The position numbers were made by a program, and so were the translations under genes. From positions 98 through 64,097 of the forward strand of contig CAYRUY010000003.1 of assembly GCA_964427455.1 (NCBI GenBank): a stretch of DNA of 64,000 nucleotides, in the 5' to 3' direction. The DNA comes from an uncultured Candidatus Bathyarchaeia archaeon. Its GTDB lineage: Archaea > Thermoproteota > CALKCG01 > B24 > JAWCPE01. Shown here one piece after another: positions 929-51,275 of this stretch (position 1 is its first letter; the number at the start of each line of letters is the position of its first letter). The notes below the pieces were generated by a model. It did not search any database. It was not told the origin of the DNA and saw only the letters and a list, made by a program, of their open reading frames with translations.

Positions 929-2002
929 TCATGTCGGCAACTGCCGCAGCTTCCTCTGCTCTACGTAGTACGAGAAGTTCTCGAAGGAGATGTCCGCCGA
1001 GACGTTGTGGTCGACGCAGGGAATGTAGCCTCCCTCTCGGGCGGTCTTGAACCGGCGCGCAACCTCTGCTTGAATGGCCTCGCGGCTGTGCGCTAGGGCA
1101 CGTTTGTCAACGCCCCCTATCAGGAGTAGGCTTCTCCCATAGGTTTCCCGGAGCTTCTCTGCATCCATGCCCGCAGCGACCTCTAGGGGGATCAGGCAGT
1201 TGACGCCTGCATCGATGAGGAGCGGAAGCAGGAGCGTCGGGTCACCGTCTGTGTCGACAGCGATCACTTGGACGCCTATGCTTCTGAGGAAAGCTGCGAC
1301 CTTCCTGTAGCCTGGTTGGATGAACTCGGCGAACAGCCTAGGCGAGATATGGGGGCCGTTCTTATACGACATGTCCTCGGCGAAGTCGACGTAGTCCGGC
1401 TTCACAGCTCCTAGGGCTTCCTTGCTTGTCTCGATGAGGAAGTCAGCCCAGAAGTCGAAGAAGCCGTGTAGCGCCCTCGGTTCCCTGTAGAAGGCTGTCA
1501 ACAGGTAGGGTAGTCCCATCAGGTCTCTTGCCTGCCAGAAGAAGCCTGGGTAACGCATCCTGACAGGTCGGTCCGTCGTCCGATAGTAGTCGATGAGCTC
1601 TGGGCTCCAAGTCAAAGGGTAACGTCTCAGGTCTAGCGGGTTGAAGCGCTCTCTAACCTTCACGAGGCTCTCCGCGTTCTTGACGGGGAAGCTGAGGAAG
1701 GTGGGCATCGAGGTTGAGGTCTTCAAAGCCCTCGTGGTTATCCCCATCTCGTTGACCGCCACTCGGTACCTTGCGTCCTCCTCCAGCGTCTTAGGGACGA
1801 AGCGAGGGATAGGGCCGAAGTCTATCGGTAGGCTGTCGATCCGGTCGAAATCGAAGTAGTCTTCGACGGTCATGCCGGCCGGTAGGCCCTCGCCGTACCA
1901 GCGGTCTAGCGTATCCTTCCAATACCCAAGCCACTCATAGAGCGGGAAACGGTCGGGTCTCCGGAAGCTCATGATCGCTGTAAACCGTTCCCTGCCGTCC
2001 AA
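929..2002 (-). CDS. Uroporphyrinogen decarboxylase (URO-D/MtaA-like) family protein
   Basis: A 357-aa ORF whose overall similarity is to the URO-D fold methyltransferase/decarboxylase family. It is a paralog of the 3169..4317 and 52800..53891 products. Confidence 0.5.
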   Translation of the reverse strand: MDGRERFTAIMSFRRPDRFPLYEWLGYWKDTLDRWYGEGLPAGMTVEDYFDFDRIDSLPIDFGPIPRFVPKTLEEDARYRVAVNEMGITTRALKTSTSMPTFLSFPVKNAESLVKVRERFNPLDLRRYPLTWSPELIDYYRTTDRPVRMRYPGFFWQARDLMGLPYLLTAFYREPRALHGFFDFWADFLIETSKEALGAVKPDYVDFAEDMSYKNGPHISPRLFAEFIQPGYRKVAAFLRSIGVQVIAVDTDGDPTLLLPLLIDAGVNCLIPLEVAAGMDAEKLRETYGRSLLLIGGVDKRALAHSREAIQAEVARRFKTAREGGYIPCVDHNVSADISFENFSYYVEQRKLRQLPT

Positions 2003-2181
2003 GATCGAGGCCGTCCTTCAAGCTCTAGCGACCGGCTCGGAGGCTGGAGGGATAAAACTGTTGCCTTCGCCTGCGAAGTCGAGGCACCATTTACGGAGCT
2101 AGCTTGAGACGAGGCCTCTCTCAGCAGCTGGGACAACTCTTATATCTGCAACGTCAAGGTCAGGCTGCTCGGTGAAGCTTC

Positions 2182-2919
2182 TTGTGGATCAGGAGTTGGT
2201 TAGACAGCCCCTCAACAGCCACGCATGGAAACCTGATCGAGCGCGTCATCTTCACGCGGAAAGACCCATCCGCGCCCACAAGGCCCGAGGCTGAGCTGTT
2301 CAACATAGGGAGCATATCTCACGCCAGCTTAGAGCCTAACACGACAACTGTTCCCACGGCTCACAGCGACTATCAGGAGATCCTGTACGTGGAGTACGGT
2401 GAGGGCTATGTCACGGCGGGAGAGCAGAAGAGGGAGGTCAGGGAAGGCTCGATCGCGCTCATTCCGCAAGGACTCTCCCATTCGATCATCAATGATACCG
2501 ATGAGCCACTTGAGATGGTCTCCATGATAGACGATGTTCCCCCAGGGCTGGAAGAGAAGGCTGCCAAACAACTGGTGGTCAGAAACTATCATGAGATCCC
2601 AGTTGGGACGACAACGTCTCACTGGCACCACATTGTGAGAGGGCTGTTAGACTCGGGAGACGGGCTTGTGACCATTGGAAACGTATTGATGGTTGAGATC
2701 GACGGCATGCAGATCGCTGAACCACACGCGCATCCGGCGAACAGGGATGAGGTCTGGTACCAGCTTGAAGGCATAAGCCTCATGTTCCTAGACCAAGAGA
2801 TCCGGAGGCAATACCCGGGCGAGGCCGTCGCAGTCCCACCTGGGGTTCAACACTCCTCCATCAACGACAGCGACGAACTCATGCGATGGCTCTACGTCTC
2901 AGCAAGCGGCAGAGCGTAG
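2182..2919 (+). CDS. Bicupin (two cupin barrels) protein
   Basis: A 245-aa ORF with motifs 'HGNLIERVIFTR' and '..HSSINDSDE..'. It is clearly paralogous to the 48617..49351 product ('HGNIVERTIFTR', 'HSSINHTDE'). Confidence 0.55.
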   Translation: MWIRSWLDSPSTATHGNLIERVIFTRKDPSAPTRPEAELFNIGSISHASLEPNTTTVPTAHSDYQEILYVEYGEGYVTAGEQKREVREGSIALIPQGLSHSIINDTDEPLEMVSMIDDVPPGLEEKAAKQLVVRNYHEIPVGTTTSHWHHIVRGLLDSGDGLVTIGNVLMVEIDGMQIAEPHAHPANRDEVWYQLEGISLMFLDQEIRRQYPGEAVAVPPGVQHSSINDSDELMRWLYVSASGRA

Positions 2920-3168
2920 GAATACTCTCACGCAGAGGGACTGCGGATCAGCAGCCCCATATCCCCTTCTTCTCAGCTACTCTCCACCACTGAGCCATAT
3001 TCATCGCCCATCTTCATCCCTATCACCTAGAGGGAGTGCGGAACAACACTCGCGATGCAGCCTAAACGACCGATCCTCGTAAGCAGGCCAATACCCTACT
3101 CGCGCTACCCGGCAGACCCGGGAAACGATTTATCGGCGCGGCAACGCATCGGTGACGGCGGCATAAGG

Positions 3169-4317
3169 ATGGATTCCAGAGAGAGGGTTCTGAGGGCGCT
3201 CCACCTAGAGGAGCCTGACAAGGTTCCTGTCTCGGAGCTGACGATCAACCCGCCCGTGATGGAGCAGGTGATCGGCAAGCAGACGGTTCCCGCGTACTCG
3301 GACGCATCCTCGCTCAGTGACTCCGAGCTTAGAGTTCGACGCGTGAAGCAGGAAGTGGAGGCCCGGGTGGAATGCTACAGGAAGCTCGGCATGGACATGG
3401 TCGGCAGCCCCTACGGGGTCGCAGACAGCTTCGTCTCGAAGCCCCTAGGGCCGAACCAAGTGCTAGGCGAGTGGGCTGAACTCTACGAGGCGAAGCCTCC
3501 ATACTCAGGGCTCTGGTACGTTAGAGGTACCATAAACGGCCCCGCGGACTACGAGGCCTTCCAGAAGCCTGACCCTTGCGCGTCGGGCAGGCTGGAGATG
3601 ATCCGAGAGACAGTTCGCCAGACAAGGGGTGAGATGGCCGTTCTAGGCCAAGCCTACCACGGCTGGAAGCAAGCCTTCCAGATGCGCGGCATCAGCGGCA
3701 TCCTCACAGACCTATACTTGAGGCCTAGCTTCGCGGAGCGAATGCTCAAAGACAACAACCGGTTCTTCGTCGAAGTCATCAAGGGCATGATAGACTCCGG
3801 CGCTGACGTAGTCTCGCTTCAAGACGACTTCGCGGACGTGAAGGGACCCTGGATGCCTCCCAGCCTCTTCAGGCGCTTCCTAGCCCCCATCATCAGAAAC
3901 GCGGTCGAGACCATCCATAAGGGGGGTGTCCCAGCCGTGCTCCACTGCGACGGCAACCTCTACCCAGTCCTCGACGACCTAGTCACGACGGGCATCGACG
4001 GGCTTCACGCGATAGAGCCCGCCGCAGGCATGGACATAGGGCGCGTCAAGGAGCTTCACGGGGACCGGATCTGCCTCCTCGGCAATATCGACTGCTCGAT
4101 CACGCTTCCCTTAGGAACTGTCGTTGAGGTCGAGGCTGAGGTTCAAGGCTGTATCGCTAAGGCGGCTCAAGGGGGTGGCCACGTGCTTACCTCGAGCAAC
4201 TCGATCCACGACTCGGTCAAGGTTGAGAACCTCCTGGCGATGATATCGGCTGCACGACGATACGGCGTCTATACCCACGGCGTCCAAGCCCAAGAGCCCC
4301 TGAGGAGTTGCGGCTAG
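3169..4317 (+). CDS. Uroporphyrinogen decarboxylase (URO-D/MtaA-like) family protein
   Basis: 'MDSRERVLRALHLEEPDKVPV' is a typical URO-D family N-terminus. The ORF track starts at 3055, but the internal ATG at 3169 fits the family length better. Confidence 0.6.
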   Translation: MDSRERVLRALHLEEPDKVPVSELTINPPVMEQVIGKQTVPAYSDASSLSDSELRVRRVKQEVEARVECYRKLGMDMVGSPYGVADSFVSKPLGPNQVLGEWAELYEAKPPYSGLWYVRGTINGPADYEAFQKPDPCASGRLEMIRETVRQTRGEMAVLGQAYHGWKQAFQMRGISGILTDLYLRPSFAERMLKDNNRFFVEVIKGMIDSGADVVSLQDDFADVKGPWMPPSLFRRFLAPIIRNAVETIHKGGVPAVLHCDGNLYPVLDDLVTTGIDGLHAIEPAAGMDIGRVKELHGDRICLLGNIDCSITLPLGTVVEVEAEVQGCIAKAAQGGGHVLTSSNSIHDSVKVENLLAMISAARRYGVYTHGVQAQEPLRSCG

Positions 4318-4389
4318 GCCGATTCGGTCCGATTCGTCTATACGTGTCGCGAGGTTCCCCACGCTCTACCATCTGCTGGTGACTAGGCC

Positions 4390-5313
4390 ATGGCGTTGGT
4401 CATTGAACGGTATTCGCCGGAGAGCCCTCCAGGTGACATCGTGGAGCTGCGTAATCGCTGCTACGCGGATAGCCCAGGCTTCTCCCCTCTCACCTTGAAG
4501 CAGTTCGAGGAGCTAAGGGCGCAGGCAGGGTTTAGGCCTGAGCTCCTGCTGACCGCCTACCTTAGCGGCAAGCCTGTTGGACTCTGCCTTGCGATTCTCC
4601 GGCAAGGGGACACAACAGGCTGGCTGGAATGGATCGGCGTCCTGCCCAGCTACAGGAGGAGACGCGTGGCTAAGGCTCTCCTAGAGCGATGCGTTGACTC
4701 GCTCCGTGTGGCTGGGGCCGGTGAGTTGTCCGTTCACTCGGTCGGGCTGGGAGACCTGAATGCGAAGAGCTTCCTTGAGAGCCAAGGCTTCAAGGTGGCC
4801 TACCATCAACTGCTCATGGTGAGAAACGTCGCAACGCCACTTCCAGACTCGCCTCTGCCATCATCTTACAGGGTCAGAACGCTCAGGCCCGGGGAGGAGG
4901 AAGCCTGGCTGAGGGTTCGGAATGAATCGTTCCGCGAGGAGCCCATAGCGCGCCATGCATGGAGCCTCGAAGACTTCAGGAGAGAGTTCGCCGAGAGCCC
5001 TTACTCTGAGAGAGGCAGGATTTTCGTCGCTGAACATTCCAGTGAGGTCGTAGGTGTGGTTGCGGCTTGGGTCTTCCCGTATCACAACGTTGAAAGAGAG
5101 ATGGTCCACTGGCTTGGGGTCCTCCCTCAACACAGACGGAGGGGGCTGGGCCAAGCCTTGGTCGTCGAAGCCCTGAGGTTCTTCAAGGCAAGCGGCGCGA
5201 AGCAGGCCCGGCTGATAACGCAGTCTGCGTTGCCGAAGGCTGTGAGGCTCTACAGAAAGCTGGGCTTCGAGGTTGAGGAGGAACGAGCCGTCTACTCGAA
5301 ACCCATCGCCTAG
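4390..5313 (+). CDS. GNAT-family N-acetyltransferase (tandem GNAT domains)
   Basis: A 307-aa ORF with two acetyl-CoA-binding-like segments ('RRRRVAKALLERCVD' and 'QHRRRGLGQALVVEALRFFK'). Confidence 0.55.
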   Translation: MALVIERYSPESPPGDIVELRNRCYADSPGFSPLTLKQFEELRAQAGFRPELLLTAYLSGKPVGLCLAILRQGDTTGWLEWIGVLPSYRRRRVAKALLERCVDSLRVAGAGELSVHSVGLGDLNAKSFLESQGFKVAYHQLLMVRNVATPLPDSPLPSSYRVRTLRPGEEEAWLRVRNESFREEPIARHAWSLEDFRREFAESPYSERGRIFVAEHSSEVVGVVAAWVFPYHNVEREMVHWLGVLPQHRRRGLGQALVVEALRFFKASGAKQARLITQSALPKAVRLYRKLGFEVEEERAVYSKPIA

Positions 5314-5410
5314 GCCGTCCCTTCATGATGGTCGCGGCCCCTACAGCATTGCTCCTGCTTCAGGCCAGAGCTTAAAGGCTCACGAAGCCAAGCTACGCCC
5401 ATTGATCCCC

Positions 5411-6151
5411 ATGAACCTCGTTGAGATCCCCGCGGAGTTCAAGCAGTGGATCTGGCTCCTAGCACCGAGACCGTGCAACTTGGTGACGACCGTTTCAACA
5501 GACGGACGGGTGAACGTAGCCACCATGTATTCATCGCAGATCATATCTTACCAGTTCACTCCCAGAAGCCCGCTCGCCTCGAACCTTGTGAGCTTCTCGG
5601 TCCATAGGTCAAGGCATACCTACGAGTGCGTGAATGAGACAGGCGAATTCGTCGTGAACACGCCGGGACTAGAAATAATCGAAGCCGTCGAGAAGGCTGG
5701 GCTGACGCGTCCCAAGGCTAGGAATGAGGCTCTAAGCCTAGGGCTCACACCTGTCGAGTCGCAGAAGGTGGAGCCGCCGAGGCTTGCAGAGTGCCTCGCG
5801 CACCTCGAGTGCAAAGTGACAGAGGTTCAGAGGCAGGGCGACTACCATCTCGTCATAGGGCGAGTCATCGCTGCTTCTGCAAGGGAGAGCGTCGTTGAGA
5901 AGGCGGCAAGGAGAACGGATGCCTCGTGGGGCCCAGCGGGGACTCTGACAGAGAACGCGGGCTACGCGAAGGAGTACGACTCTTACCTTCTCAGAGGCGA
6001 GTGGGCGGTCCAAGCCTACCTCGTCAGCCTCAGGTTCTATGACAAAGCATGCTATGACTCAGCCCTCAGGAGGCTTCTCGGCTCACAGAGCGGGCTTGAT
6101 ACACGTGGCGCATCGCAGCCAAGGCGTGTGAGAGGAAGTAGTACAACATAG
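5411..6151 (+). CDS. Flavin reductase-like (FMN-binding split-barrel) domain protein
   Basis: 'PRPCNLVTTVSTDGRVNVATMYSSQI' matches the flavin reductase-like domain signature. The ATG at 5411 is preferred over the upstream start, which overlaps the GNAT gene. Confidence 0.5.
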   Translation: MNLVEIPAEFKQWIWLLAPRPCNLVTTVSTDGRVNVATMYSSQIISYQFTPRSPLASNLVSFSVHRSRHTYECVNETGEFVVNTPGLEIIEAVEKAGLTRPKARNEALSLGLTPVESQKVEPPRLAECLAHLECKVTEVQRQGDYHLVIGRVIAASARESVVEKAARRTDASWGPAGTLTENAGYAKEYDSYLLRGEWAVQAYLVSLRFYDKACYDSALRRLLGSQSGLDTRGASQPRRVRGSSTT

Positions 6152-6156
6152 ACGAC

Positions 6157-6603
6157 TTGAGAATCAGCATCAACGTCCTGCCTACCGACGGCGGTGGGAA
6201 TCTGGCCGGTATCTTCGACAGGACGAACGCTTACATCCTCTCGCAAGCGCAGGCCCTCCCGGTCGAGGCGATGGCGCCTCCAAAGGACAAGCCCAAGCGC
6301 ATCTTTTTCGCTCTTCCGGGCATGCTCGACAAGATCAAGGCCCGACAGGTCACATGCACGTATAGGCCGAACGCTAGAAACGGCCTATACGAGGTCCACA
6401 CGGGGAGCCGGTTTGACGCAAAGCCTACTGGCATCATCATCGAAGTGTACCAGACTGAGGCGGTGGAGACGGCGAAGCTCAAGGACTCCGATGCGCAGTT
6501 GGCGGGGGTTGCCTCGGCCAGAGAACTTCTAGAACACCTTGACAGATGGTATGACGGAGTGCCATCAACTATCACCAGGAACTGGTTCAGGCTAGTCGAG
6601 TAG
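6157..6603 (+). CDS. Hypothetical protein (possible ASCH/PUA-like fold, weak)
   Basis: A 148-aa ORF in the same orientation as its neighbours. I recognised no strong motif. Confidence 0.3.
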   Translation: MRISINVLPTDGGGNLAGIFDRTNAYILSQAQALPVEAMAPPKDKPKRIFFALPGMLDKIKARQVTCTYRPNARNGLYEVHTGSRFDAKPTGIIIEVYQTEAVETAKLKDSDAQLAGVASARELLEHLDRWYDGVPSTITRNWFRLVE

Positions 6604-6705
6604 GCACGCTCGGATCGACGCTTCACAGCCAACAGACTTCCATAGGATGAACTCGTTCGGTCAAGGCTTATTACCAGACCTGCAGGAGGCATCCCGTGGA
6701 GATAT

Positions 6706-7773
6706 TTGCCGAGCAGAGTTGTTCTCCACATCGACCTCGACGCGTTCTTCCCCTCCGTTGAGGCGAGGCAGAACCCTGACCTCAAGGGCAAGCCTGTCAT
6801 CGTAGGCGCAGACCCGAAGCAGGGCAGGGGCCGAGGCGTAGTCAGCAGCGCTTCGTACGAAGCGAGAAAGTATGGGATACGGTCGGCGATGCCCGTCTCA
6901 ACGGCTTGGCGGCTATGCCCGCAGGCAATCTATCTCCCGGTGAACTATCCCCTCTACGAGCAGGCATCGGCGAAGGTGATGGCGCTCCTGAAGAGCTACG
7001 CAGACAGGTTCGAGCAGGCAGGAATCGACGAAGCCTTCCTCGACGTAACCAATCGAGTCCAAGGCTTCGAGGATGCAGCTAGGCTCGCGAAGAGAATCCA
7101 GCAAGAGCTCTTGGAGAAGGAAGGCCTCACGTGTTCAGTAGGCGTAGCGCCGAACAAGCTGGTCGCGAAGATCGCATCGGACTTCCAGAAGCCCTCAGGA
7201 CTGACAGTCGTCACCCCTGAGGCGGTCAGAGGTTTTCTCTACCCGCTCCCGGTCAGAAAGCTATGGGGTGTCGGGCCGAAAACGGAGAAAGCTCTCCAAT
7301 CTTTGGGCATACGGACTATAGGCGACCAAGCCAGCTTCGACCCTACCGCTTTGGAGAAGGCGTTCGGTGCTTGGGGCCGTAGGCTCCGGGAGCTAGCTAG
7401 CGGCGTTGACGAGAGCCCTGTGGAGGAGCGAGGCGAGGTCAAATCGGTAAGCAGAGAGACCACGTTCCAAGAAGACACCGATGACCGTGAAGTAATCCTT
7501 GGAACCCTAGACGTGTTGGCTCGGCAGGTCCACCGCGACCTTCAAGCCTCTGGCCTCAGCTATAGAACTGTCTCCATCAAGCTTCGATACGAGGACTTTG
7601 AGACCCATACGCACGCTGAATCGTTGCCTTTCACAACAGACAAGCTGGAACCAATCCGGGAGAAGGCGAAGATTCTAGCCAGAAGGTTTCTGCGCGACAA
7701 GAGAAAGGTAAGGCTCGTAGGGGTAAGAGTGTCGGCTCTCGTCTCAGGTCATGGGCAGAAGACCTTGGCGTAG
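6706..7773 (+). CDS. dinB: Y-family DNA polymerase IV (Dpo4/DinB)
   Basis: 'VLHIDLDAFFPSVEARQNPDLKGKPVIVGA' and 'SASYEARKYGIRSAMP...IDEAFLDVT' are canonical DinB/Dpo4 motifs. The apparent start is TTG. Confidence 0.85.
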   Translation: MPSRVVLHIDLDAFFPSVEARQNPDLKGKPVIVGADPKQGRGRGVVSSASYEARKYGIRSAMPVSTAWRLCPQAIYLPVNYPLYEQASAKVMALLKSYADRFEQAGIDEAFLDVTNRVQGFEDAARLAKRIQQELLEKEGLTCSVGVAPNKLVAKIASDFQKPSGLTVVTPEAVRGFLYPLPVRKLWGVGPKTEKALQSLGIRTIGDQASFDPTALEKAFGAWGRRLRELASGVDESPVEERGEVKSVSRETTFQEDTDDREVILGTLDVLARQVHRDLQASGLSYRTVSIKLRYEDFETHTHAESLPFTTDKLEPIREKAKILARRFLRDKRKVRLVGVRVSALVSGHGQKTLA

Positions 7774-7874
7774 GCCAGCCTGTCCGCGTAGAGATGGAAG
7801 CTGGCGGAGGGCGTGGAGATCCCCTTCAAACCTTAAGAGGGGGCTGACGGAAACGTCCAGGAGCGGAGAGGCGT

Positions 7875-8075
7875 ATGGTCTATAAGAAGATTGAGCTGGT
7901 AGGCGTCTCCTCAAAGGACTTCTCAGACGCGGTTCAGAACGCGGTTCACGAGGCTGCGAAGACCTTGAGAGGACTAAAATGGGTTGAGGTCGTCAACCTC
8001 CGAGCCCACGTTGAGAAGGACACGATTAGAGAGTACGAGGCGACAGTCAAACTCGCTTTCGAGGTTGAAAGGTAA
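7875..8075 (+). CDS. Dodecin (flavin-binding) family protein
   Basis: The 66-aa product 'MVYKKIELVGVSSKDFSDAVQNAVHEA...' matches dodecin in both length and N-terminal pattern. Confidence 0.7.
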   Translation: MVYKKIELVGVSSKDFSDAVQNAVHEAAKTLRGLKWVEVVNLRAHVEKDTIREYEATVKLAFEVER

Positions 8076-8222
8076 CCCTCTGGACGCACCTAGACCCTTC
8101 TCCCCGGGCACGACGCCTGGTCGTCCAGCTGGCCTCTGCTCCACATAGGCGCCAGATGAACGAGGACAAGGGTCAGCGGAGGGCCTGCCCTAGCTATCGA
8201 ACCCTATCGACTACCTGCACTG

Positions 8223-9254
8223 CTACGCGTGCGTCTTGGCTCCGAGCTTCCTGTAGGCCTCGCCGAGCGTTTGCCAGACCAAGTCCGGCCGGTCTGAGGC
8301 CAGGATGCTGCCGAGCCCGCCCCTGAAGGGCCAGGCGTAGATTGAGCAAACGTTCATCTCTGCTGCCATCTCGACCGCTTTGGCAAGCTCCCATTCTCGG
8401 CCGTGGGGAACACGGAAGGCTTGAACCCATATCTGGCAACGTTTCCCATGTCGGTCTGAGAGGCTCTTGGCTCTCCAGGCTCGTTCTCTGAAGAACCTCA
8501 GGCCTTCCTCAGTGGCCATGTCGTACCAATAGGGGTCGGTTGAGAAGATGTCCATCTCCTTTATGCTGAAGACTTTCTCCCAGTCTGAAACCCCGTACCG
8601 TGGGTCTTCCCTCGGGAGAAGGCATAGGACGACCTCCTTGCCTAGGTCTGTCTGCTTGACCCGCTTGGACATCTCGCCTAGGAATCCGAGGATCATGCTC
8701 TGCCTGAACTCTAAGACCTCCGCCGTGAGGGCTCTAGGCATCTCGAAGCCATACTCTCTCTTGAACAACTCCTGACAGACAGGGCAACAGCAGCCCCACT
8801 CATCCAAGGTTGCCCCATGCGCGTAATGAGGCTCATCCCAGAAGAAGGCATCAACGTCTGTCTCTCGGCCAAGCCGCTCTATGGCTTCGAACGCATAGCT
8901 CCTGAAGGCCTCTGTGTTGAAACAGGCAACGTTGAAGACCTGCCCGTTCTTGGCTGACACCTGACGGTTTCCCGGGTTCTCCTGAAGAAAGATGCTCGGA
9001 GGCTCACCGCCGAAAGTCTTTCCCCAGCCCCATAGGTCCAAGTAGACCCTCAGTCCCATGGCCCTAGCCTCGTCGATGAGCCTCCTAACGTTCTGAAACC
9101 AGAAATCCACGTCAAACTCGGAGACGGCGAGCAGAACAGAGCTGCAGCCATGCTCCAGCATCTCTTGGAAGTCCAGAACAGCCCTATCCGGGTAGGCGAC
9201 CCCGTAATAGCTTACACCTGTCTCTTCGACCAATCGGTTCCCCACCTCTAGCAT
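8223..9254 (-). CDS. TIM-barrel glycoside hydrolase-like protein with a Cys cluster (GH42/GH5-like?)
   Basis: A 343-aa ORF containing 'LDLWGWGKTFGG' and a 'CCCPVCQ' cysteine cluster that recalls a zinc site. Family assignment is uncertain. Confidence 0.35.
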   Translation of the reverse strand: MLEVGNRLVEETGVSYYGVAYPDRAVLDFQEMLEHGCSSVLLAVSEFDVDFWFQNVRRLIDEARAMGLRVYLDLWGWGKTFGGEPPSIFLQENPGNRQVSAKNGQVFNVACFNTEAFRSYAFEAIERLGRETDVDAFFWDEPHYAHGATLDEWGCCCPVCQELFKREYGFEMPRALTAEVLEFRQSMILGFLGEMSKRVKQTDLGKEVVLCLLPREDPRYGVSDWEKVFSIKEMDIFSTDPYWYDMATEEGLRFFRERAWRAKSLSDRHGKRCQIWVQAFRVPHGREWELAKAVEMAAEMNVCSIYAWPFRGGLGSILASDRPDLVWQTLGEAYRKLGAKTHA

Positions 9255-9354
9255 GGATTCGCATTGCGTCCTGTGGTGAAAAACCTTCGGGAGCGCATCT
9301 TCAAAGCGCCGGAAAGGTTGAAGTCATGTTCAACTCTTAGCCCGCTGATGCAGG

Positions 9355-10805
9355 ATGTGGAGCCGTGCCTCTCTCTCAGTCCTCCTCTTGAGCGCCCTCG
9401 CAATCGCAGGCGCTCTCTCGTTACAGGGCTACGCCGCTCAAGCCCAGGGCTCATGGACCTACTATGGTCACATCCCCGGAGAGGTCTGGCTGGCCTCCAA
9501 TGATAACGACGCGAACAAGCCATACGTGATCAGGCCTGAGACCGTTGTGGACTACGGCCGAGTGACGGTGATAGGAGCCCATGACCAGACTCACGTCGAG
9601 GTGTACGTTCTTCCAGACAAGGCGCTGGTGAAGAGCATCAGCCTGAGCAAGTTGGAGAAGTCTTCTATCAGCCTTCCGAACGGGACCTTCTTCAAAGTCG
9701 TCTCAGACAAGCCTGCGACAGTGGTCTTGATGGGCGGCGTAGCCATGGAGCGGGGAGAAGCCTACACCACGACATTCTGGACAGGCACTAGTGGAGGCTA
9801 CGTGGACCGCGAGTTCGTCTTCATAGCTCTTCAAGGAAAGAGCCTACCCACAGGCTACGTGGGCGGCTTGGTGCACAGGGTCTACGCGCTCGAAAAGAGC
9901 GACGTAACGATTCAGGATAGCAGCGGCTCAACGGTTTCGGAGTTCAAACTTCAGTCCAACGGCGTGAACTCTCACTAGTGCCCCTAGAGGTCTACAGGCT
10001 TGTCTCAACCGGGCGCGTCATGCTCCAGACCTTCTTCCTCGGCGGCTGGTATGCAGCCTGGCTCTTCGGAGGCACATGCTACTATCCGGCGGTGAAGGGC
10101 AGCTTCCAAGGCAAGGTCTTCTACGGTGGAGCCTTCGACCCGGCGTATATATGGCATACGTTCATCGCAGGCGAACTCCTCGTCCCGAGCGGGCAGGAAG
10201 CTAACGTGAAAGTCTCAGATGTTCAGAACAGGCGAGAGGCCCTGAAAGGCACAGTCCCAGCTCAGGGAGAGCTGGCCGTCTATCCTAAGGCGGCACACAT
10301 CATCGTAGAGGCAGACCAGCCCGTCATCGTAATGGTAAGGAACACGGGCCTAGCCCAGGGCGGCCTTAAGGCAGGCCAGACAGCGTACCTCGACATCCCC
10401 TCCGGTGGCAACTTCTCAGGAGAAGCATACCTCTTCGCGTGCAAGGAGACCACCGTCACACTGGACGACGTGAACCTCAAGCTGGCCGCTGACGAGTACC
10501 TGCCCCTCCGCGGGGGCCTACACAAGCTGTCAGCCTCGGAGAACGTTGTCTTCCAGGTGGCTAACTGGCCCGCAGCGTCAGATATCCAGTGGACCTACGC
10601 GGGGAGAATCCCTAGCTTCATGCGGCTTTCGGACTACGGCGCCTGCATTCCCTCAGTACAGACGCTCGACCTCACCTACGAGGACTTGGAACTGAAGCCT
10701 CTGATAGGCCAGGAGCTACCGTTGACCTACATCGCAGCGGGGGCTGCGGTTGCGCTCGCAGTGATAGTTACGGCCTTCGCCTTCAGACGTAGGTCTAGGG
10801 CCTAA
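9355..10805 (+). pseudogene. Member 1 of a secreted, C-terminally anchored repeat-protein family, disrupted by a 1-nt frameshift near 9958-9978
   Basis: Two adjacent ORFs (9355..9978 and 9978..10805) lie in different frames. Together they align with the intact paralogs at 12101, 13697 and 49776 ('LQSN' then 'RRELSLVPLEVYRLVSTG' versus 'LLANEERGLALISTAVYRLVSTG'). There is a signal peptide at the N-terminus and a TM helix plus Arg-rich tail at the C-terminus. Confidence 0.5.
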
Positions 10806-10886
10806 ACGGGGCCATCGCGAGAGGGCATGAGCTAGCCATTAGCGGAGAGAGACGTCAAGGCAGCCAAACGGGCATCGATGCGCGTT

Positions 10887-11867
10887 CTAGACTGGGACTT
10901 TCACCGCCCTGCCCGTCTCCGCGGACTTCGCGACCGCCAAGGTCAAAGCGAGGGTTTTGACACCCTCCCGTATGGGCACCTCCGTCGGCTCGTCGGCAAG
11001 GATCGCCTGGACAAACTTTCTGTCCTCGTCCAAGTACGGGTCGTTCGTCGACTGGAACTCGGTCGATTCCTGTCCCCTCAGCACCCGCGCTCTTGAACCC
11101 TCGACCGTCAGCTGAAGGTTCTTCGCAACAAGCCTCGCTCCCACGTAGCCTCCGCTCGGCTGAGCCGCCGAAGTGTTCGTTATGACGCCCAGAGCCCTAT
11201 TCTTGAAGCGGAGTAGGGCTATGCCCACATCTTCCACGGTGAAGTTGGGCTCATCCTTATGGACAAGGGTGTCCAGTCGCCCATAGACCTCTCTAACCTC
11301 GCCTGCCAGGAATCTCGCTAGGTCATAGATGTGAGTTGCCTGCTCGACGACCTGGCCGCCGCTCAGGTCTTTCCGCCTCCACCAGAAGTCGGGGCCTCCG
11401 GGGATGCCGCCCCACCAGTTTCCCTCAAAGAGCGCGATCGGGCCGCCTTCCGCTTGAAGCACAGCCTTGGCCCGTCTGACGGAGAGATACTGCCGCATAT
11501 GGTAGCCGACCCAGCTCTTCACGCCTGCCAACTCGATCGATGCCTGCATGCTCTGCGCTAGCTCAAGCGTCAACGCGATCGGCTTCTCGATGAAGATGTG
11601 AACGCCCTTCTCAGCGGCGACGGTCACCTCTTCCATGTGAGCGAATGGTGGGAGACAGACCCAGACTGCGTCAAGCCTCTCCTTCTCAAGCATCTGGTGA
11701 TGATCCGTGTAGGCGGCTGCCTTGTAGACGCCTGCACGCTCCTTGGTCCGCGCCTCAACAATATCGCATATCGCCGCAATCCTCGCCTGCGGGATCTTCG
11801 ACAGGCGTTCCAGGTGTACGCCCGCGATCCCACCTGCGCCGATCAAGCCGACCCTTACCTCGCGCAA
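10887..11867 (-). CDS. Gfo/Idh/MocA-family NAD(P)-dependent oxidoreductase
   Basis: 'VRVGLIGAGGIAGVHLERL' is an N-terminal Rossmann motif, and the 326-aa length is typical of the family. Confidence 0.65.
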   Translation of the reverse strand: MREVRVGLIGAGGIAGVHLERLSKIPQARIAAICDIVEARTKERAGVYKAAAYTDHHQMLEKERLDAVWVCLPPFAHMEEVTVAAEKGVHIFIEKPIALTLELAQSMQASIELAGVKSWVGYHMRQYLSVRRAKAVLQAEGGPIALFEGNWWGGIPGGPDFWWRRKDLSGGQVVEQATHIYDLARFLAGEVREVYGRLDTLVHKDEPNFTVEDVGIALLRFKNRALGVITNTSAAQPSGGYVGARLVAKNLQLTVEGSRARVLRGQESTEFQSTNDPYLDEDRKFVQAILADEPTEVPIREGVKTLALTLAVAKSAETGRAVKVPV

Positions 11868-12100
11868 CTTACCGCCTCAGAGAGCAGCGTCCGCTAGCGC
11901 CTTGACTTAAGAGTTTGGCGCTCGTCGTCCTCGGGTCAAGGCTTGCCGATAGGAGATCTGTGGAAAGTCAGGCGTGGGCTTAGAGGACTATCTGAAAGCT
12001 AGATCGACTCTTGTGCTCTGCGGTCACAACGGAGAACGCTCTCGATCGCCAAGGCTTAAAACGCCTTTCCGCAATATCATGCGGCGTAATAGGCCCTTTC

Positions 12101-13522
12101 ATGCCTCGATGGAGCCAAGCGGAGTTGAGTCCAAGGATCCTTCATGTCCTAGGCCTGCTGGTTCTCTTGTCTGCGGCCGCTATGCTTTCGGGCACAGTCG
12201 ACTCGTCAGGGGCGGCGCCGCTGGCGGAAGGGTATGATTACTACGGCTACGTGCCTCGGAACATCACCCAGGTCTACACGTCGGGTTACTACAGCTTCAC
12301 GAACGTGACCGGTCAGGTCCGGGGCATCGTCGCGATCGTGGGCATTCACGACGGCACGAGGGTCGCGGTATACACTCTTCCCGATAAGGGCCTTGTGAAG
12401 AGCCTGACTGTGAACAGGCTAGAGAGAGCCTTCGTCTATCTCTCTAATGGGACCTTCTTCAAAGCCACTAGTGACAAGCCTCTCTCAATCGTCTTAATGG
12501 GCGGCCTCGGGATTGAGACCGGCGAGGCCATGATCAGCACATTCTTCACAAACACCGAGGGAGGCTATGTGGGAAAGGAGTTCATCTTCATGGCCATAGA
12601 GGCCAAGATGATGACCTACGCGTCTGGTGTCTGGGCCGTCCTCCCCGGATTGCCAATAAGGGTCTACGCGTTAGAAGACAGCGACATCACCGTTTCGGAT
12701 GTGAACGACACGAAGGCCGCTGAGTTTCATATCGCCGCGAACAAGTTCCGCGAGTTTGAACTCACCGCGTTCGGCGTCTACAGGCTGCTCTCGACAGGCG
12801 CGGTTATGGTTCAAACCTTCTCATTCGACCGGTCATGCTTCTACCCTGCGGTGGAAGGAGGCTACGTCGGTAAGCTCTTCTATGGAAGTGCCCCCTTGAA
12901 GGAGCTGTGGGGCGCAACTTGGACGCAGGCGGGCTTCAGCTACATTGCCACATCAGCTGAGGGCGCGAAGGTCACGGTCGCAGACCTAGGATTCTGGAAG
13001 AAGGAATCTGAGGTGGATGTCGCGCCTCGGCAGAATATCTCCTTCCCGGTGAAGGTTGGCCACATGTCGGCTCAGACCGATAAGCCTATTCTACTCATGT
13101 TCAAGAGCGACGACCGCACGGGCGGCGTCGCGGTCACTGGTCTAGCAGCAGGCCAAGAGGCGTATATCGTCTCGCCGAACGGGGAAACCTACGTGTTCGC
13201 GTACAAGGAGACAGTCGTGACCCTCGACGACGCCCAGGTTAGGCTCCAGCCTGACGGCATCCTGACAGTCCCCGAAGGCCTCCACAAACTGTCCACGTCC
13301 GAGAACATCATCGTCGAGACCGCGAACTACCTGAAGGCTTCATCTGTGGCAAATTTCGGCCAATGCTTACCCTCGGCTCAGTCCCTAAGCCTCAGGAATA
13401 CCGGCGTTAGAGCTAGACCCGTGATTAAAGAGGAGCTCCCTTGGGTGTACATCGCAGGCGGGGCGGCTGTCGTCGCAGTCGTGGCAGTTGCCCTCCTCAT
13501 GAGGACGAGGAGAAAACGCTGA
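12101..13522 (+). CDS. Member 2 of the secreted, C-terminally anchored repeat-protein family (putative surface glycoprotein)
   Basis: A signal peptide, shared motifs (YYGYVP, NGTFFK, GGYVGKEFIF, YRLLSTGAVMVQ, YPAVEGGYVGKLFYG, LHKLSTSENI, EELPWVYI) and a C-terminal TM helix followed by RTRRKR. Confidence 0.6.
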   Translation: MPRWSQAELSPRILHVLGLLVLLSAAAMLSGTVDSSGAAPLAEGYDYYGYVPRNITQVYTSGYYSFTNVTGQVRGIVAIVGIHDGTRVAVYTLPDKGLVKSLTVNRLERAFVYLSNGTFFKATSDKPLSIVLMGGLGIETGEAMISTFFTNTEGGYVGKEFIFMAIEAKMMTYASGVWAVLPGLPIRVYALEDSDITVSDVNDTKAAEFHIAANKFREFELTAFGVYRLLSTGAVMVQTFSFDRSCFYPAVEGGYVGKLFYGSAPLKELWGATWTQAGFSYIATSAEGAKVTVADLGFWKKESEVDVAPRQNISFPVKVGHMSAQTDKPILLMFKSDDRTGGVAVTGLAAGQEAYIVSPNGETYVFAYKETVVTLDDAQVRLQPDGILTVPEGLHKLSTSENIIVETANYLKASSVANFGQCLPSAQSLSLRNTGVRARPVIKEELPWVYIAGGAAVVAVVAVALLMRTRRKR

Positions 13523-13696
13523 CACGCATGGCAGAAGACCACTCGCGCATGCAGGTGCACGAGAAGGCTGTGTCTGGACGCTTCTCCGGACCTTAGCCAT
13601 GCCTCGCCAAACCTGCTCCGAACAGAAGTTCTCGGCGTCAGATAGCGGGAAGCCTTATCTTTGGGTTTCAGGCTGCGATCGATTGCCGGTGCTGCT

Positions 13697-14989
13697 ATGA
13701 TTCCTCGGGGTCTCAGTCGCTTCCTCGCCTTCGCGTCTCTCCTCGCACTTTCCTCTGGGTTCTTGGAGGTCACAGCTCTCACTGACGTCGGCGCCCACAG
13801 CGTCTTCTACTGCTACGTGCCCACATCCGCGGTCGGAGGCGAACTCCACGTGGTAGGTCTCACCGATAACACGAAGGTGTGGATCCTTGACATCACCGAG
13901 GAAGAACCGAAGGTCGTCCAATCTGGCGTCATAGATAGGCTTGAGGACCTGGTCCTCCGAGATGTACCGTTTGAAAGATACTTTAAGGTAGTATCCAACA
14001 GACGAGCTGTGGCGCAGCTTCGCTCCGTCGAGGGCTCGGCCGGATCGGCCTTCTTCCCAGGCGTAGGTGGTAGCTTCGTCGGAAAGGAGTTCATCCTCAG
14101 GACGTTCGGAACCTCGAACTACCATATCTTCGCCGTCGATGCCTCACACGTTGCGGTTCAAGATGCCCGAGGAACCGTTCTAGAGGAGTTCGACCTAGGT
14201 GTTCAAGGCCGTCGAACGGTCACGCTGGCAGCGAATAACGTCTTCAGGCTTCTCTCCACGGGGAACATCACTGTGTCCACATGGGCTGACGATGGTTTCA
14301 CCGCCGTTCCGTCCTTCACCGGCGAGTTTGTCGGCAGGACATTCTATGCGAGGACGTGGGTTGGCTTCAACGGTTGCTTCGTCGTTTTCGCTTACCAAGA
14401 CGCATCAGTAAGCGTGACCAATCTGGAAGGCGGGCGCTCCTACACCGCAGCCCTGAAGAGGGGTGAGTATTGGTACGAGGAAAACGTCGGGAATGCAGAC
14501 CTGATCTTTGACAGCACCGGTGATGTAGCTGTCTGGAGCGGTGACATAGAGGGTTTGATGGGCATCAAGTCGCTCGGGGACGACATCACCTTCACAGGCG
14601 GCAAGGACGCAAGGGAGTTCTGGTTCCAAGCCGTCCATAGGAAAGCCGGCCCGGCCGCCGTGATCTTCGCGTGGAAGGACACTACGGTCGAGTTGAACGG
14701 TACGGTTGAGACGATCAAGGCCGATGGACACTTGGACGTACCCGAGGGATTCTATCACCTAAGGTCCGACGAGTCAGTCGTCGTAGAGACCCTCGGCGAA
14801 GACAACTTCTTCAACAACTGGGGCACGTGCCTCATGGCAGCTTCAGAGATGGCAGCCGACACGTCTATGCTGCCCGAGCCTAATGTACAAGGCGACTCCA
14901 GCCTCCTCTTGGTAGGAGTCGGTGCCGCCGCATCCGCAGTCTCGGTCTCTGCGATCGTTCTCTGGTTCACTCGACATCGGCGGCGCTGA
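13697..14989 (+). CDS. Member 3 (divergent) of the secreted, C-terminally anchored repeat-protein family
   Basis: A signal peptide, 'FRLLSTGNITV', 'GSFVGKEFIL' and a C-terminal TM helix followed by RHRRR. A TTG start at 13661 is also possible. Confidence 0.55.
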   Translation: MIPRGLSRFLAFASLLALSSGFLEVTALTDVGAHSVFYCYVPTSAVGGELHVVGLTDNTKVWILDITEEEPKVVQSGVIDRLEDLVLRDVPFERYFKVVSNRRAVAQLRSVEGSAGSAFFPGVGGSFVGKEFILRTFGTSNYHIFAVDASHVAVQDARGTVLEEFDLGVQGRRTVTLAANNVFRLLSTGNITVSTWADDGFTAVPSFTGEFVGRTFYARTWVGFNGCFVVFAYQDASVSVTNLEGGRSYTAALKRGEYWYEENVGNADLIFDSTGDVAVWSGDIEGLMGIKSLGDDITFTGGKDAREFWFQAVHRKAGPAAVIFAWKDTTVELNGTVETIKADGHLDVPEGFYHLRSDESVVVETLGEDNFFNNWGTCLMAASEMAADTSMLPEPNVQGDSSLLLVGVGAAASAVSVSAIVLWFTRHRRR

Positions 14990-21654: not shown

Positions 21655-23457
21655 TCACGGCACCGGGTTGGGCCGCTCGTAGAGCCTCAATTCACCATTG
21701 TCGTACACCTTGGCTGTGTCACGGAGGTCGAGTTCCTTGAGGCTTCCCGGTATCACGCCGTATCGGCTGAGAAGGAGAGTCGCAGACCTCTCAGTGTGGA
21801 CAAAGCAAGTCCAAGGCACCGTGGCCAAACGGGAGCTGTTCCCTACCATGCCAGGGTCTAGTTCAGCTCTCAAGAAGACATTCGACCCATCTTGAAAGGC
21901 GTACCTCAATCGGATCAGCGTCAGGTCGCTGTCGCTGAACACTCTATGGTAGCGGAGGCTCTGTGCTCGTAGGAATTCAATAGCAGCCATCTCAGCCAGC
22001 GATGTCTGCCGTTGACTCTCCGTGTAGTTGACTGCCAGAAAGTTCAAGGGCACAAGTGCCACCGCGAGAGTAGCCAAGACAGCAACGACTTGCCTCATCC
22101 TCACTGCCGTGGGCTTTGAGACCAGGCTTCTTGTACACAAGATCGCAACCACGGGCGCCGCGACTCCCCATGCCCGGTCTCCGTAGAGGCCTCCTGTAGC
22201 AACCCAAGCGAGCACCGTGCTCACGGCTGCGCCAAGCAGAATGCTTGAGAAGAAGACCTCTTCGGCCTCCAATCGATGCGACCGCTTGGTTGCTTTGAAC
22301 AAGCTCCGGGCGAGCCCAGCGAGAGATGGGGCTACGGTAATGCCGAGCAAGCCGAACGTCACGCCACGAATGACTTGAGAATAGGCTGGCTGGTAGGCGG
22401 GGCGGAACAATCCCTCGCTAAGCCTGAATTCTCCCAGTGTTACTGCGTCCCACAGCCTACGAACACTGGCGGATAGCAGCGAGGCGCTCGTGCCTAAGGC
22501 GACAGTTCGGACGGTCCACCAAGCGGCGATAGATGTCAAGAAGAGGATGACTGCAGGCCCTGTGATGGCGCTGGTCAATGGCCTACGGGTTGCACGGTTG
22601 AGGACAAGGAAGACGACGAACACAGGGAAGAGCAGGAGCGAAGTGACTGGGTGCAGCATTACAACGCTGAAGAGCAGGAGAGTGAACAGAACCCTCGTGC
22701 TCCTCTGCCGGTCAAGGCCGCGGTACATGAATGGTAAGATAAGCAAGGAGAGAAAGTAGGCGACTGTCTGGGGCGAATAGTGCTGATGGTTGAGAATCAA
22801 AGAGTTTGGCGTCAAGCTGAAGACGAGAAGACAGAGAAAAGCGTCTCTTGGGTGGAAGAAGAGGAGGAAGAGCCTCATTGATGCGGCTCCGATGAGAAGG
22901 ATGAAGATAACTGCCAGAGACTTGCTTACGTCAAGGACGGGCAGGCCTGCAAGAGTGCTGAAGGCCCCATGCAAGATGAAGGAGCTAGGCCACAGTAGGT
23001 ACCGGTTCAAGCCGGGCTCTACTCCAGCAGAGACCAACACGTACGTTGTCTCGGAGTGAGCGAAGGTATCCCAGTACCTAACCCCAGGTTCAGCCGCAAC
23101 AAGATAACCCCAAAGGAGGCCGAAGACGATCGCTCCCCAGACCACAGTCTCGAGCGCGCCTTCATTCCGCCTCGACACGAACGGGAACACAAGGCCATAG
23201 CCCAGCGCCGCCCAGAAGAGGGGAGAGACCGCTTCATAGAGATCGAGGCCCAGCGTGTTCTCGAAGAAAACGGGTGTAGCACAGGAAGCCACCGCGAGCA
23301 CGGCGAGTATGACTAGCGGGACCGCCCTGCTTACCTGAGTGGGAACTCGACCGTTGATTCCGCTTGCCATCAGCAGATCGAGCCGCCTTTCTCCACAAGA
23401 GCTGCCCGGAGGCAACTCTGTGGCTCGTGGACGGTGGATGCTCGAGAGACCGAACAA
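21655..23457 (-). CDS. Polytopic membrane protein, putative GT-C-fold glycosyltransferase
   Basis: A 600-aa protein with at least 12 predicted TM helices and a C-terminal soluble domain, located inside a glycosylation gene island. I saw no WWDYG motif. Confidence 0.35.
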   Translation of the reverse strand: MFGLSSIHRPRATELPPGSSCGERRLDLLMASGINGRVPTQVSRAVPLVILAVLAVASCATPVFFENTLGLDLYEAVSPLFWAALGYGLVFPFVSRRNEGALETVVWGAIVFGLLWGYLVAAEPGVRYWDTFAHSETTYVLVSAGVEPGLNRYLLWPSSFILHGAFSTLAGLPVLDVSKSLAVIFILLIGAASMRLFLLFFHPRDAFLCLLVFSLTPNSLILNHQHYSPQTVAYFLSLLILPFMYRGLDRQRSTRVLFTLLLFSVVMLHPVTSLLLFPVFVVFLVLNRATRRPLTSAITGPAVILFLTSIAAWWTVRTVALGTSASLLSASVRRLWDAVTLGEFRLSEGLFRPAYQPAYSQVIRGVTFGLLGITVAPSLAGLARSLFKATKRSHRLEAEEVFFSSILLGAAVSTVLAWVATGGLYGDRAWGVAAPVVAILCTRSLVSKPTAVRMRQVVAVLATLAVALVPLNFLAVNYTESQRQTSLAEMAAIEFLRAQSLRYHRVFSDSDLTLIRLRYAFQDGSNVFLRAELDPGMVGNSSRLATVPWTCFVHTERSATLLLSRYGVIPGSLKELDLRDTAKVYDNGELRLYERPNPVP

Positions 23458-23583
23458 ATCGTTAAGCGCGCCTAGGTGGCAACCTGACGACGGCCAAGGG
23501 AAGCAGAGAAGCGCGTCACCGCCTCGGCGTGGAATCGATACAAGAAGGTTGTGGGGTCCGCTTTGGCGCCAGGGGCCCGAGAG

Positions 23584-25987: not shown

Positions 25988-26072
25988 GAACGTACGCTTG
26001 ACCTCTCAGCATCGAGGGGGAACGACGCAATGCCGGAGACTGACGCGAGTCCCTTGCGTGGTACCTCGCCGT

Positions 26073-49775: not shown

Positions 49776-51275
49776 ATGCTACCGGGCCGTGACCATTCGC
49801 GTTGCTTTCTGTCGTTGTTTGTGCTCAGCTCGCTAGGCTTGACTGCTCTGCAGCCGTTCGCCTTCTGTGGGCTTAAGGGTATGCTTGTCCATGGCGCTGA
49901 CGACGCGCAGATCTATTACGGCTTCGTCCCACCCGGAATCTTCTGGTACAAACTAGGACAGAAGGGCTGGTTCAACCCAGAGGAAGCGACCTTGGTCAAC
50001 GAGACGATCACCCGCGAGGCCTTCCTCGCCGTGGCTGGGAACCATGACAGCACGAGCGTGAAGCTGTATGAGCTTCCCAGCGGTAGGCTCCTGGCGGATA
50101 CGAGGTTGGACAAGCTGGGGAAGGCTGTCTTCGCGTTGCCTAACGGTTCCTTCTTCAAGCTCGTGTCCTCCGCGCCAGTAACGGCGGTTCTGATGGGAGG
50201 CGTCGGGGTTGAGCGAGGCCTGTTCGGCCAGCCGCGCCATGTGGAGGGGACGAGCACCTTCTATGCGGATGTGGACGGCCGCTACGCGGGGAAGGAGTTC
50301 ATCTTCATCCCCGTGCACGCGAAGTCGCTTGGTTTCTACTCCGACCTACCGGTCCGCGTCTTAGCCCTAGAGGACAGCGAGGTGACTGTTTCGGACGCGA
50401 ACGGCTCGACGGTCGCCAGCTTCAGGCTTCTAGCTAACGAGGAGAGGGGCCTCGCGCTCATATCCACCGCGGTCTACAGGCTTGTCTCCACCGGCCGAGT
50501 GATGGTACAAGGCTTCGCTGCGCCGCGGTCGCTCTACTACCCCGCCGTAGAGGGAGGCTTCGTCGGCAAGATCTTCTACGGGATAATCTCCTCCGCCGGC
50601 ACCACGGTATACCAGTTCCTCCAAGCCTCCCTCATAGTAACAGCCGTCGAAGACTCGAAGATAACTCTGTATGACGCGAAGTACGGCAAGAAAACTCTCG
50701 ACACGAACGTGCAGGCAGGTCAGATCTTAGAGATCGACGCTGGTAGCCCCGACCTCAAGACGAACCAAATGGTCTTGAGAAGCGACCGGCCTGTGATGGT
50801 GATGCTCCAGACCCGCACGGGAGGCAAGTCAGGCGAAACTTGGCCGTACTCAGCAGGCGGGATAGGACTTGCAGGGCTTAAGGCAGGTCAGACCGCCTAC
50901 GTGAACGTGCCGAAGGGCTGGACCTACGCCTTCGCCGCACAAGAGACCGTCCTAAGCGTCGACGACGTCACCGTGAGGCTCCCAGCGGACGGATACTTCC
51001 CCATCCCAACAGGGACGCATAAGCTCTCGGCGGACGCGAACATCATCCTTGAGTCCATAGACCTCGAGGAGAAGGAGGGCCTTCCCACCTTCGCCACCTC
51101 CCTCCCCTCTGCTCAGTCCTTGGCGCTCACAAACGAGAACCTGAGGCTGAAACCCGTGGTGAGCGAGGAACTCCCATGGACGTACATCGGAGTCGGCGTC
51201 CTCGTAGCCGCCGTGGTCGCCGTGTGGCAGTTATCGAGGCGGAAGACGGCGCACACGCTCGTTGAACAGCTGTAG
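49776..51275 (+). CDS. Member 4 of the secreted, C-terminally anchored repeat-protein family (putative surface glycoprotein)
   Basis: A signal peptide, 'YYGFVP', 'LPNGSFFK', 'YRLVSTGRVMVQ', 'YYPAVEGGFVGKIFYG', 'THKLSADANII' and 'EELPWTYI' followed by a TM helix and an RRK tail. Confidence 0.6.
   Translation: MLPGRDHSRCFLSLFVLSSLGLTALQPFAFCGLKGMLVHGADDAQIYYGFVPPGIFWYKLGQKGWFNPEEATLVNETITREAFLAVAGNHDSTSVKLYELPSGRLLADTRLDKLGKAVFALPNGSFFKLVSSAPVTAVLMGGVGVERGLFGQPRHVEGTSTFYADVDGRYAGKEFIFIPVHAKSLGFYSDLPVRVLALEDSEVTVSDANGSTVASFRLLANEERGLALISTAVYRLVSTGRVMVQGFAAPRSLYYPAVEGGFVGKIFYGIISSAGTTVYQFLQASLIVTAVEDSKITLYDAKYGKKTLDTNVQAGQILEIDAGSPDLKTNQMVLRSDRPVMVMLQTRTGGKSGETWPYSAGGIGLAGLKAGQTAYVNVPKGWTYAFAAQETVLSVDDVTVRLPADGYFPIPTGTHKLSADANIILESIDLEEKEGLPTFATSLPSAQSLALTNENLRLKPVVSEELPWTYIGVGVLVAAVVAVWQLSRRKTAHTLVEQL

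Follow-up and report, generated by a model that had tools for sequence, protein, structure and literature searches.

The DNA analysed here, a 64,000 nt stretch of contig CAYRUY010000003.1 from an uncultured Candidatus Bathyarchaeia archaeon (hereafter the window), carries four loci of a single protein family that bears no Pfam or NCBIfam name and whose members the sources list only as 'hypothetical protein'. When open reading frames (ORFs) were taken from all six frames and searched with a hidden Markov model (HMM) of the family, these four loci were returned with E-values of 1e-88 to 1e-233, and no further paralog was found in the window. This agrees with an earlier sequence-only reading, which had proposed a clustered paralogous family with a fourth copy at 49776-51275. 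All copies lie on the plus strand, copies 1, 2 and 4 sharing a pairwise identity of 36–40 % and copy 3 being about 25 % identical to these three, while no common promoter or TATA motif was seen upstream of the four. The copies and their features are:

9355..10805, plus strand: paralog 1, present as ORFs 9355-9978 and 9978-10805, split by a 1-nt frameshift near 9958-9962
about 9355-9447, plus strand: putative signal peptide of paralog 1
10710-10733, plus strand: tail motif QELPLTYI of paralog 1, followed by the transmembrane (TM) helix and then by RRRSRA at 10785-10802
12011..13522, plus strand: paralog 2, its start codon ambiguous among TTG 12011, ATG 12101 and TTG 12125
12239-12256, plus strand: motif YYGYVP of paralog 2, with an NGT sequon within 12440-12463
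13430-13453, plus strand: tail motif EELPWVYI of paralog 2, with RRKR at 13508-13519
13661..14989, plus strand: paralog 3, a divergent sublineage that keeps the TM helix and an RHRRR tail
49776..51275, plus strand: paralog 4, the copy modelled by AlphaFold2 (AF2)
50247..50825, plus strand: repeats 2 and 3 of paralog 4, residues 158-350
51165-51188, plus strand: tail motif EELPWTYI of paralog 4, with RRK at 51237-51245

The sequence-only reading had described four proteins of 440–500 aa, and the layout is indeed shared by all four, but copy 1 is broken into two ORFs. The motifs it listed lie where it had placed them in copies 1, 2 and 4 and are degenerate in copy 3; likewise, the conserved NG[ST] sequon is present in copies 1, 2 and 4, with VPFERYFK at that site in copy 3. 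The terminal motif EELPW[TV]YI, which had been ascribed to all of them, is confined to copies 2 and 4, copy 1 carrying QELPLTYI and copy 3 GDSSLLLV instead. Copy 3, whose nearest relatives are the proteins P0077 and P0124, thus has the architecture of the other copies without the conserved sequon and without the ELPW-type motif.

Both halves of copy 1 are otherwise well conserved, and the upstream reading of its second frame carries on the family alignment (…FKLQSN / RRELSLVPLEVYRLVSTG…). As an independent ENA metagenome contig (L033) covers positions 9237-10515 gap-free, with 2 single-nucleotide polymorphisms and the identical frameshift, the interruption is not an assembly accident of the window contig. 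In other genomes the orthologues of copy 1 are unbroken, as exemplified by P0009 with 50 % identity. Copy 1 may be either a recent pseudogene or else a gene needing recoding, and we regard it as a probable pseudogene.

Each copy begins with an N-terminal basic residue followed by a hydrophobic segment, and relatives show an AxA-type site directly ahead of the first conserved motif (…AQA/AHA-QEE-YxYYGxVP, for example ...AQA followed by QEEYxYYG), a position that fits a cleaved Sec signal peptide. At the opposite end all four copies finish with a hydrophobic stretch of about 20 residues and then RRR or RRK, and the ectodomain in between is all-beta and about 400 aa long. For copy 4, an AF2 model based on an alignment of 20 sequences reached a predicted local distance difference test (pLDDT) score of 82.7 and a predicted template modelling (pTM) score of 0.80. 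In this model the signal peptide forms a helix at residues 7-29, some 35 beta strands follow between 45 and 443, and a short linker, which is conserved, leads to a TM helix (468-498) starting from the Trp of ELPWTYI; no other long helix and no coiled-coil stalk is present. The proposal that these are exported and anchored surface proteins is supported by this layout of signal peptide, all-beta ectodomain, one C-terminal TM helix and positive-inside tail.

The internal repeats had been put at about 70 aa, yet profile–profile comparison (hhalign) of the ectodomain as four segments gave four units of about 90–100 aa instead. Repeat 2 (residues 158-250) and repeat 3 (251-350) matched each other with an hhalign probability of 97.7 % and an E-value of 9e-12, making them the best-supported duplication inside the ectodomain, and pairs involving repeats 1 and 4 were weaker. 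Repeats 2–3 of copy 4 (AF2 pLDDT 86, pTM 0.83) are predicted to form tandem jelly-roll-like beta sandwiches, and this model has a Foldseek query template modelling score (TMq) of just 0.30 against bicupins. Across 96 family members, Gly, Pro and aromatic residues make up most of the near-invariant columns, with single positions of Thr, Ser and Lys besides, and the invariant columns contain no conserved His/Asp/Cys set; this pattern favours a structural or binding module over an enzyme. A WD40 or beta-propeller fold had been a candidate through profile matches in the PDB to the designed proteins Tako8 and Ika8 and to WD40 proteins. It was rejected, every per-blade i-Evalue being at least 1.1, the low whole-sequence E-value of Tako8 and Ika8 arising from a score summed over eight identical designed blades, and Foldseek returning no propeller for the AF2 model. 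Searching the viral structure library BFVD was uninformative, with low-TM matches to beta-sandwich tail and adhesin proteins only.

Although the family had been called undescribed, and indeed has no curated name, none of the window proteins giving a Pfam or NCBIfam match, its consensus clearly if divergently matches the Pfam family PF17517 (IgGFc_binding), for which the gathering cut-off is 25.6 bits. The consensus of the 96-member alignment (A3) scores 54.2 bits (E 1.7e-14) over model positions 13-293 of 297, that of a closer 20-member set (A2) scores 37.7 bits, and 15 of the 96 diverse members match individually, with a best E-value of 9.3e-10 and, for P0016, a score of 26.2 bits. By this clear match, the family belongs to the IgGFc_binding superfamily, as a divergent archaeal branch that stands alone and has gained one repeat at the C-terminal end. 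The literature offered nothing on prokaryotic PF17517, on DUF6785 and DUF6784, or on archaeosortases of Bathyarchaeota.

When 5.8 billion proteins were searched by word index, no more than 17 clusters came back, all of them unnamed. At E ≤ 1e-3 an exhaustive profile search of 1.84 billion representatives yielded 420 proteins, and 181 of these reach E ≤ 1e-30. Most of these matches are 420–520 aa long and alike in layout. In a few giant multidomain relatives, the core (profile positions about 68-410) is found among PKD, FG-GAP, Ig-like and carboxypeptidase-regulatory-like domains, and the company of PKD, FG-GAP and Ig-like domains is typical for surface and adhesion modules. The distribution scan used one genome per GTDB species; the 32 genomic loci of the family all come from metagenome-assembled genomes (MAGs) labelled Bathyarchaeia/Bathyarchaeota or unclassified Thermoprotei, Thermoproteales or archaeon. 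Multiple copies per genome are found, at least eight in one MAG, and tandem arrays also occur in other genomes, with four copies at locus L002 and three at L003. Each window copy is 45–80 % identical to proteins from other genomes and 25–40 % identical to its paralogs in the window. As the window copies are closer to proteins of other genomes than to one another, they represent old, separately maintained sublineages.

From these findings we consider it reasonably probable that the family is a lineage-restricted, multi-copy set of type I membrane-anchored cell-surface proteins of Bathyarchaeia with a non-enzymatic binding or structural ectodomain. The proteins would be exported through Sec via a cleavable N-terminal signal peptide, after which the mature chain, starting at the conserved YxYYGxVP strand, would fold into four tandem jelly-roll-like beta-sandwich repeats of about 90–100 residues each, the first approximately 270 residues corresponding to a domain of the IgGFc_binding (PF17517) type in divergent form. 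Next to the membrane, about 25 conserved linker residues would lead into the single C-terminal TM helix, and with the Arg/Lys cluster expected to stay cytoplasmic by the positive-inside rule, the ectodomain would be held near the membrane. The ectodomain is most likely non-enzymatic because no catalytic-looking residues are conserved; it may capture a ligand, polymer or partner, or be a component of the cell envelope, and the old paralogs may supply differing specificities.

Several points weigh against this interpretation. Cleavage of the signal peptide is deduced from sequence patterns, and Foldseek found no likeness of the whole model to solved structures beyond a TMq of 0.31; with no globally similar solved structure, the fold allows no direct functional transfer. 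PF17517 is matched neither by copies 2, 3 and 4 nor by either half of copy 1, even at E ≤ 1, and the link to this family comes from the family consensus and from relatives rather than from the window proteins. Furthermore, the tail motif is conserved in the close subfamily beyond the need of a plain anchor.

Other genes observed in the window or around family members in other loci are:

929-2002, minus strand: gene of the URO-D family with distant MtaA/CmuA likeness
3055-4317, plus strand: URO-D family gene, likewise with distant MtaA/CmuA likeness
52800-53891, plus strand: URO-D family gene, likewise with distant MtaA/CmuA likeness
10887-11867, minus strand: Gfo/Idh/MocA oxidoreductase gene between copies 1 and 2, unrelated to the family
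46250-48319, minus strand: DUF6785/DUF6784 protein of 689 aa with about 10 TM segments, near copy 4
3051-7763 of locus L003, minus strand: giant protein combining an M28 peptidase, a MacB-like periplasmic domain and an FtsX permease
1042-5715 of locus L002, plus strand: M28-MacB-FtsX giant protein
5637-9002 of locus L026, plus strand: M28-MacB-FtsX giant protein
1-1658 of locus L028, minus strand: M28-MacB-FtsX giant protein

URO-D-like genes are the only neighbours enriched beyond what within-locus shuffling predicts. They directly adjoin a family gene in 8 of 33 loci (L006, L009, L010, L011, L021, L022, L025 and L030) versus 2.6 expected, with p about 0.002, and stand at most three genes from a family gene in 13 loci. 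Sugar-related and sugar-acid genes, coding for Gfo/Idh/MocA, PfkB, MR/MLE, DUF362, cupin and glycoside hydrolase family 1 (GH1) proteins, recur nearby without significant positional enrichment; Gfo/Idh/MocA and DUF6785 were rejected as conserved operon partners, lying no nearer the family genes than within-locus shuffling predicts. P0001, a protein 99.6 % identical to copy 4, is encoded in the same context of cupin, family gene, DUF362 and URO-D as at copy 4. A DUF6785/DUF6784 homologue at 1918-4005 of L028 ends 9 bp upstream of a family gene, and others occur in L003, L024 and L032. The M28-MacB-FtsX giants (1100–1570 aa) adjoin family genes in the four loci given above, those of L002 and L003 standing beside a 10-TM orphan of 625–635 aa.

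The nearby glycosylation island noted in the sequence-only reading is real: a glycan-synthesis island at about 23.5–33 kb holds three glycosyltransferase family 4 (GT4) genes, one GT2 gene, a Gfo-hexapeptide fusion and a DUF1616 protein. The fusion joins Gfo/Idh/MocA to a hexapeptide acyltransferase, and over the wider span 21655-33000 the island also includes a type I phosphodiesterase as well as orphan proteins without a family match, one of them a 600-aa 10-TM protein at 21655-23457. Elsewhere in the window, the 343-aa protein adjoining copy 1 (8223-9254, minus strand) has no Pfam or NCBIfam match, and ARAGORN detected no tRNA genes anywhere in the 64 kb. Between 54000 and 62000 the GC content falls from about 0.58 to 0.50–0.53 over a membrane-bound hydrogenase or complex-I-like module, which comprises a fusion of NuoC/D-like and NiFe large-subunit parts, a NuoH-like subunit, 4Fe-4S ferredoxin domains and a pyridine-nucleotide-disulphide oxidoreductase.

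The most specific alternative concerns the C-terminus, which had been likened to the sorting signals of archaeosortases or exosortases and would then be a new tripartite signal, cleaved at [FL]PxxY[IV] by an archaeosortase-like enzyme that attaches the protein to lipid or to the envelope. A motif followed by about 20 hydrophobic residues and a basic cluster does formally equal the PGF-CTERM or PEP-CTERM layout, the motif stands, like PGF, directly where the helix starts, and it is kept across members of only about 30 % identity within one large subclade. Matches to the NCBIfam CTERM models are also seen, though these stay below threshold, with 14.6–14.7 bits for GG_III-CTERM (cut-off 22) and 9.7–15 bits for PVV-CTERM (cut-off 27), and for Gram_pos_anchor (PF00746), whose cut-off is 20 bits, the consensus reaches 13.9. 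Among 154 distinct family tails, however, the strict form of the motif ([FLIM]PxxY[IVLAY]) occurs in 51 and a looser form in 76, so that it is missing in half or more of the family, copy 3 included, whereas every full-length tail examined has the TM helix and the basic cluster. Nor does the expectation of unrelated proteins with an ELPWxYI-TM-Arg tail hold: across about 550 kb (the window and the 32 loci, from 17 sources including 16 MAGs), none of 9 non-family ORFs with a C-terminal TM segment and basic tail carries the motif. Only four short proteins came back when 5.8 billion proteins were searched with a profile of 31 tails, and the two significant ones are C-terminal fragments of the family, a soft negative in that this search scores just 8000 word-sharing candidates. 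No exosortase or archaeosortase was detected by Pfam among the ORFs of the window, which represents 64 kb of the genome, or by NCBIfam among 10 multi-TM ORFs of the window and related loci, and according to a review the archaeosortases described come from only part of the Euryarchaeota, Sulfolobales (Thermoproteota) lacking one and keeping SlaB anchored by its TM helix (PMC6098224). The motif Pro is always 20–24 residues ahead of the first basic residue, which in the model is the outer end, or N-cap, of the TM helix, and a Pro N-cap with a Trp/Tyr belt is the look of an ordinary TM anchor. A sorting signal is improbable on this evidence; the tail is read most simply as a permanent type I anchor, in which [FL]PxxY[IV] would provide the proline N-cap and aromatic interface belt of the helix and not a cleavage signal. 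The idea of an extracellular cupin-type enzyme can be set aside more firmly still. It arises from bicupins and other double-stranded beta-helix proteins being the top Foldseek matches, but TM-scores of 0.1–0.31 with root-mean-square deviations above 12 Å, the absence of His or Glu metal ligands from the invariant columns and the lack of any cupin Pfam match leave it close to refuted and scarcely credible.

The two remaining alternatives accept a surface location and differ in what the ectodomain would do there. By analogy with DUF1608 proteins of Methanosarcina, the family might make up the S-layer or outer sheath of Bathyarchaeia, one abundant paralog tiling the surface and the others being minor variants. 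Signal peptide, duplicated beta-sandwich ectodomain, short tether and TM anchor together resemble the design of Methanosarcinales tile proteins and SlaB (in part after PMC6098224), an S-layer and an outer sheath, neither with identified proteins, are known from Bathyarchaeum tardum (PMC10477458), the LPN(123)G[ST] sequon is present in 18 of 20 close relatives, and the glycan-synthesis island lies 10 kb away. On the other hand, each genome has from four to at least eight paralogs that are deeply diverged and separately anchored, which is atypical for lattice proteins. The sequon falls to 43 of 96 diverse relatives, its Thr/Ser at +2 persists even where another residue takes the place of the Asn, and the 2–5 sequons per protein are only a weak enrichment over the 1.5–2.1 expected from shuffling. 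In other genomes glycosyltransferases do not recur as neighbours of family genes, no S-layer family or structure is matched in Pfam, NCBIfam or the PDB, and a preprint predicting Bathyarchaeia S-layer proteins has Thermoproteota lattices of Ig-like domains (10.1101/2024.05.28.596244). We therefore judge an S-layer or sheath role unlikely, and its combination with the sorting idea, in which the family would be the main envelope (S-layer/sheath) glycoprotein set of Bathyarchaeia and the [FL]PxxY[IV]-TM-RRR tail a new signal for a non-exosortase enzyme such as the candidate DUF6785/DUF6784 protein, highly improbable. Alternatively, the proteins might be surface substrate-capture modules coupled to cytoplasmic MtaA/CmuA-like methyltransferases and sugar-acid catabolism, acting for example on methoxylated aromatic or plant-derived polymers. 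The enrichment of URO-D-like immediate neighbours, the three such genes in the window and the recurrent Gfo/Idh/MocA, PfkB, MR/MLE, DUF362, cupin and GH1 genes speak for this, as does the growth of cultured Bathyarchaeia on methoxylated aromatics (PMC10477458, PMC10989822). Yet URO-D-like genes are very abundant in these genomes and often divergently oriented, L009/L011 and L021/L022 are syntenic copies that make for fewer independent events than loci, and neither a consistently linked transporter nor an identifiable binding site was found. Gene context allows this hypothesis and does not establish it, and as an explanation of the family we find it distinctly unlikely. The anchored, non-enzymatic binding or structural protein is hence the reading we retain.

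Bathyarchaeia are among the most abundant archaea of anoxic sediments, and to our knowledge none of their cell-surface proteins has been characterised. Lineage-specific, multi-copy and modelled with confidence, the family offers concrete candidates for roles in the envelope, in adhesion or in substrate capture, as well as for virus receptors, and it could be useful as a proteomics marker for the few Bathyarchaeia enrichment cultures. It also extends the IgGFc_binding superfamily, itself poorly understood, into Archaea in a stand-alone membrane-anchored form, while no new mechanism is implied so far.

Set beside known systems, the family shares single features with several. Bicupins and other tandem jelly-roll proteins (canavalin, vicilin, pirin and tandem cNMP-binding domains) show local 3Di similarity with Foldseek probabilities of up to 1.0, but global superposition is poor (TMq ≤ 0.31), and there are no metal-ligand motifs and no sequence relationship. 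The tail is tripartite like that of archaeosortase and exosortase substrates (PGF-CTERM, PEF-CTERM, PEP-CTERM), with a short motif opening a hydrophobic helix and an Arg-rich cluster, but unlike theirs its motif is limited to one family and to part of it. In LPXTG sortase substrates the motif stands a few residues before the helix, whereas LP[WL]TY of the window proteins has no Gly and is contiguous with the helix. With Sulfolobales SlaB and the Methanosarcinales tile proteins (DUF1608), the family shares the Sec signal, the tandem beta-sandwich ectodomain and the presumably membrane-retained C-terminal TM anchor, and Methanosarcina S-layer tile proteins likewise occur as several paralogs per genome; unlike SlaB, the window model is without a coiled-coil stalk, and neither sequence nor fold matches SlaB or DUF1608. 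The relationship to PF17517, the N-terminal domain of FCGBP and of many secreted bacterial multidomain proteins, is one of family-level sequence homology, and both are extracellular (as predicted for the family), all-beta, internally repetitive and without known catalytic activity. Whereas PF17517 is otherwise a module of large secreted proteins, the window clade is archaeal and stands alone at about 450–500 aa, adding a fourth repeat, its own signal peptide and a C-terminal TM anchor.

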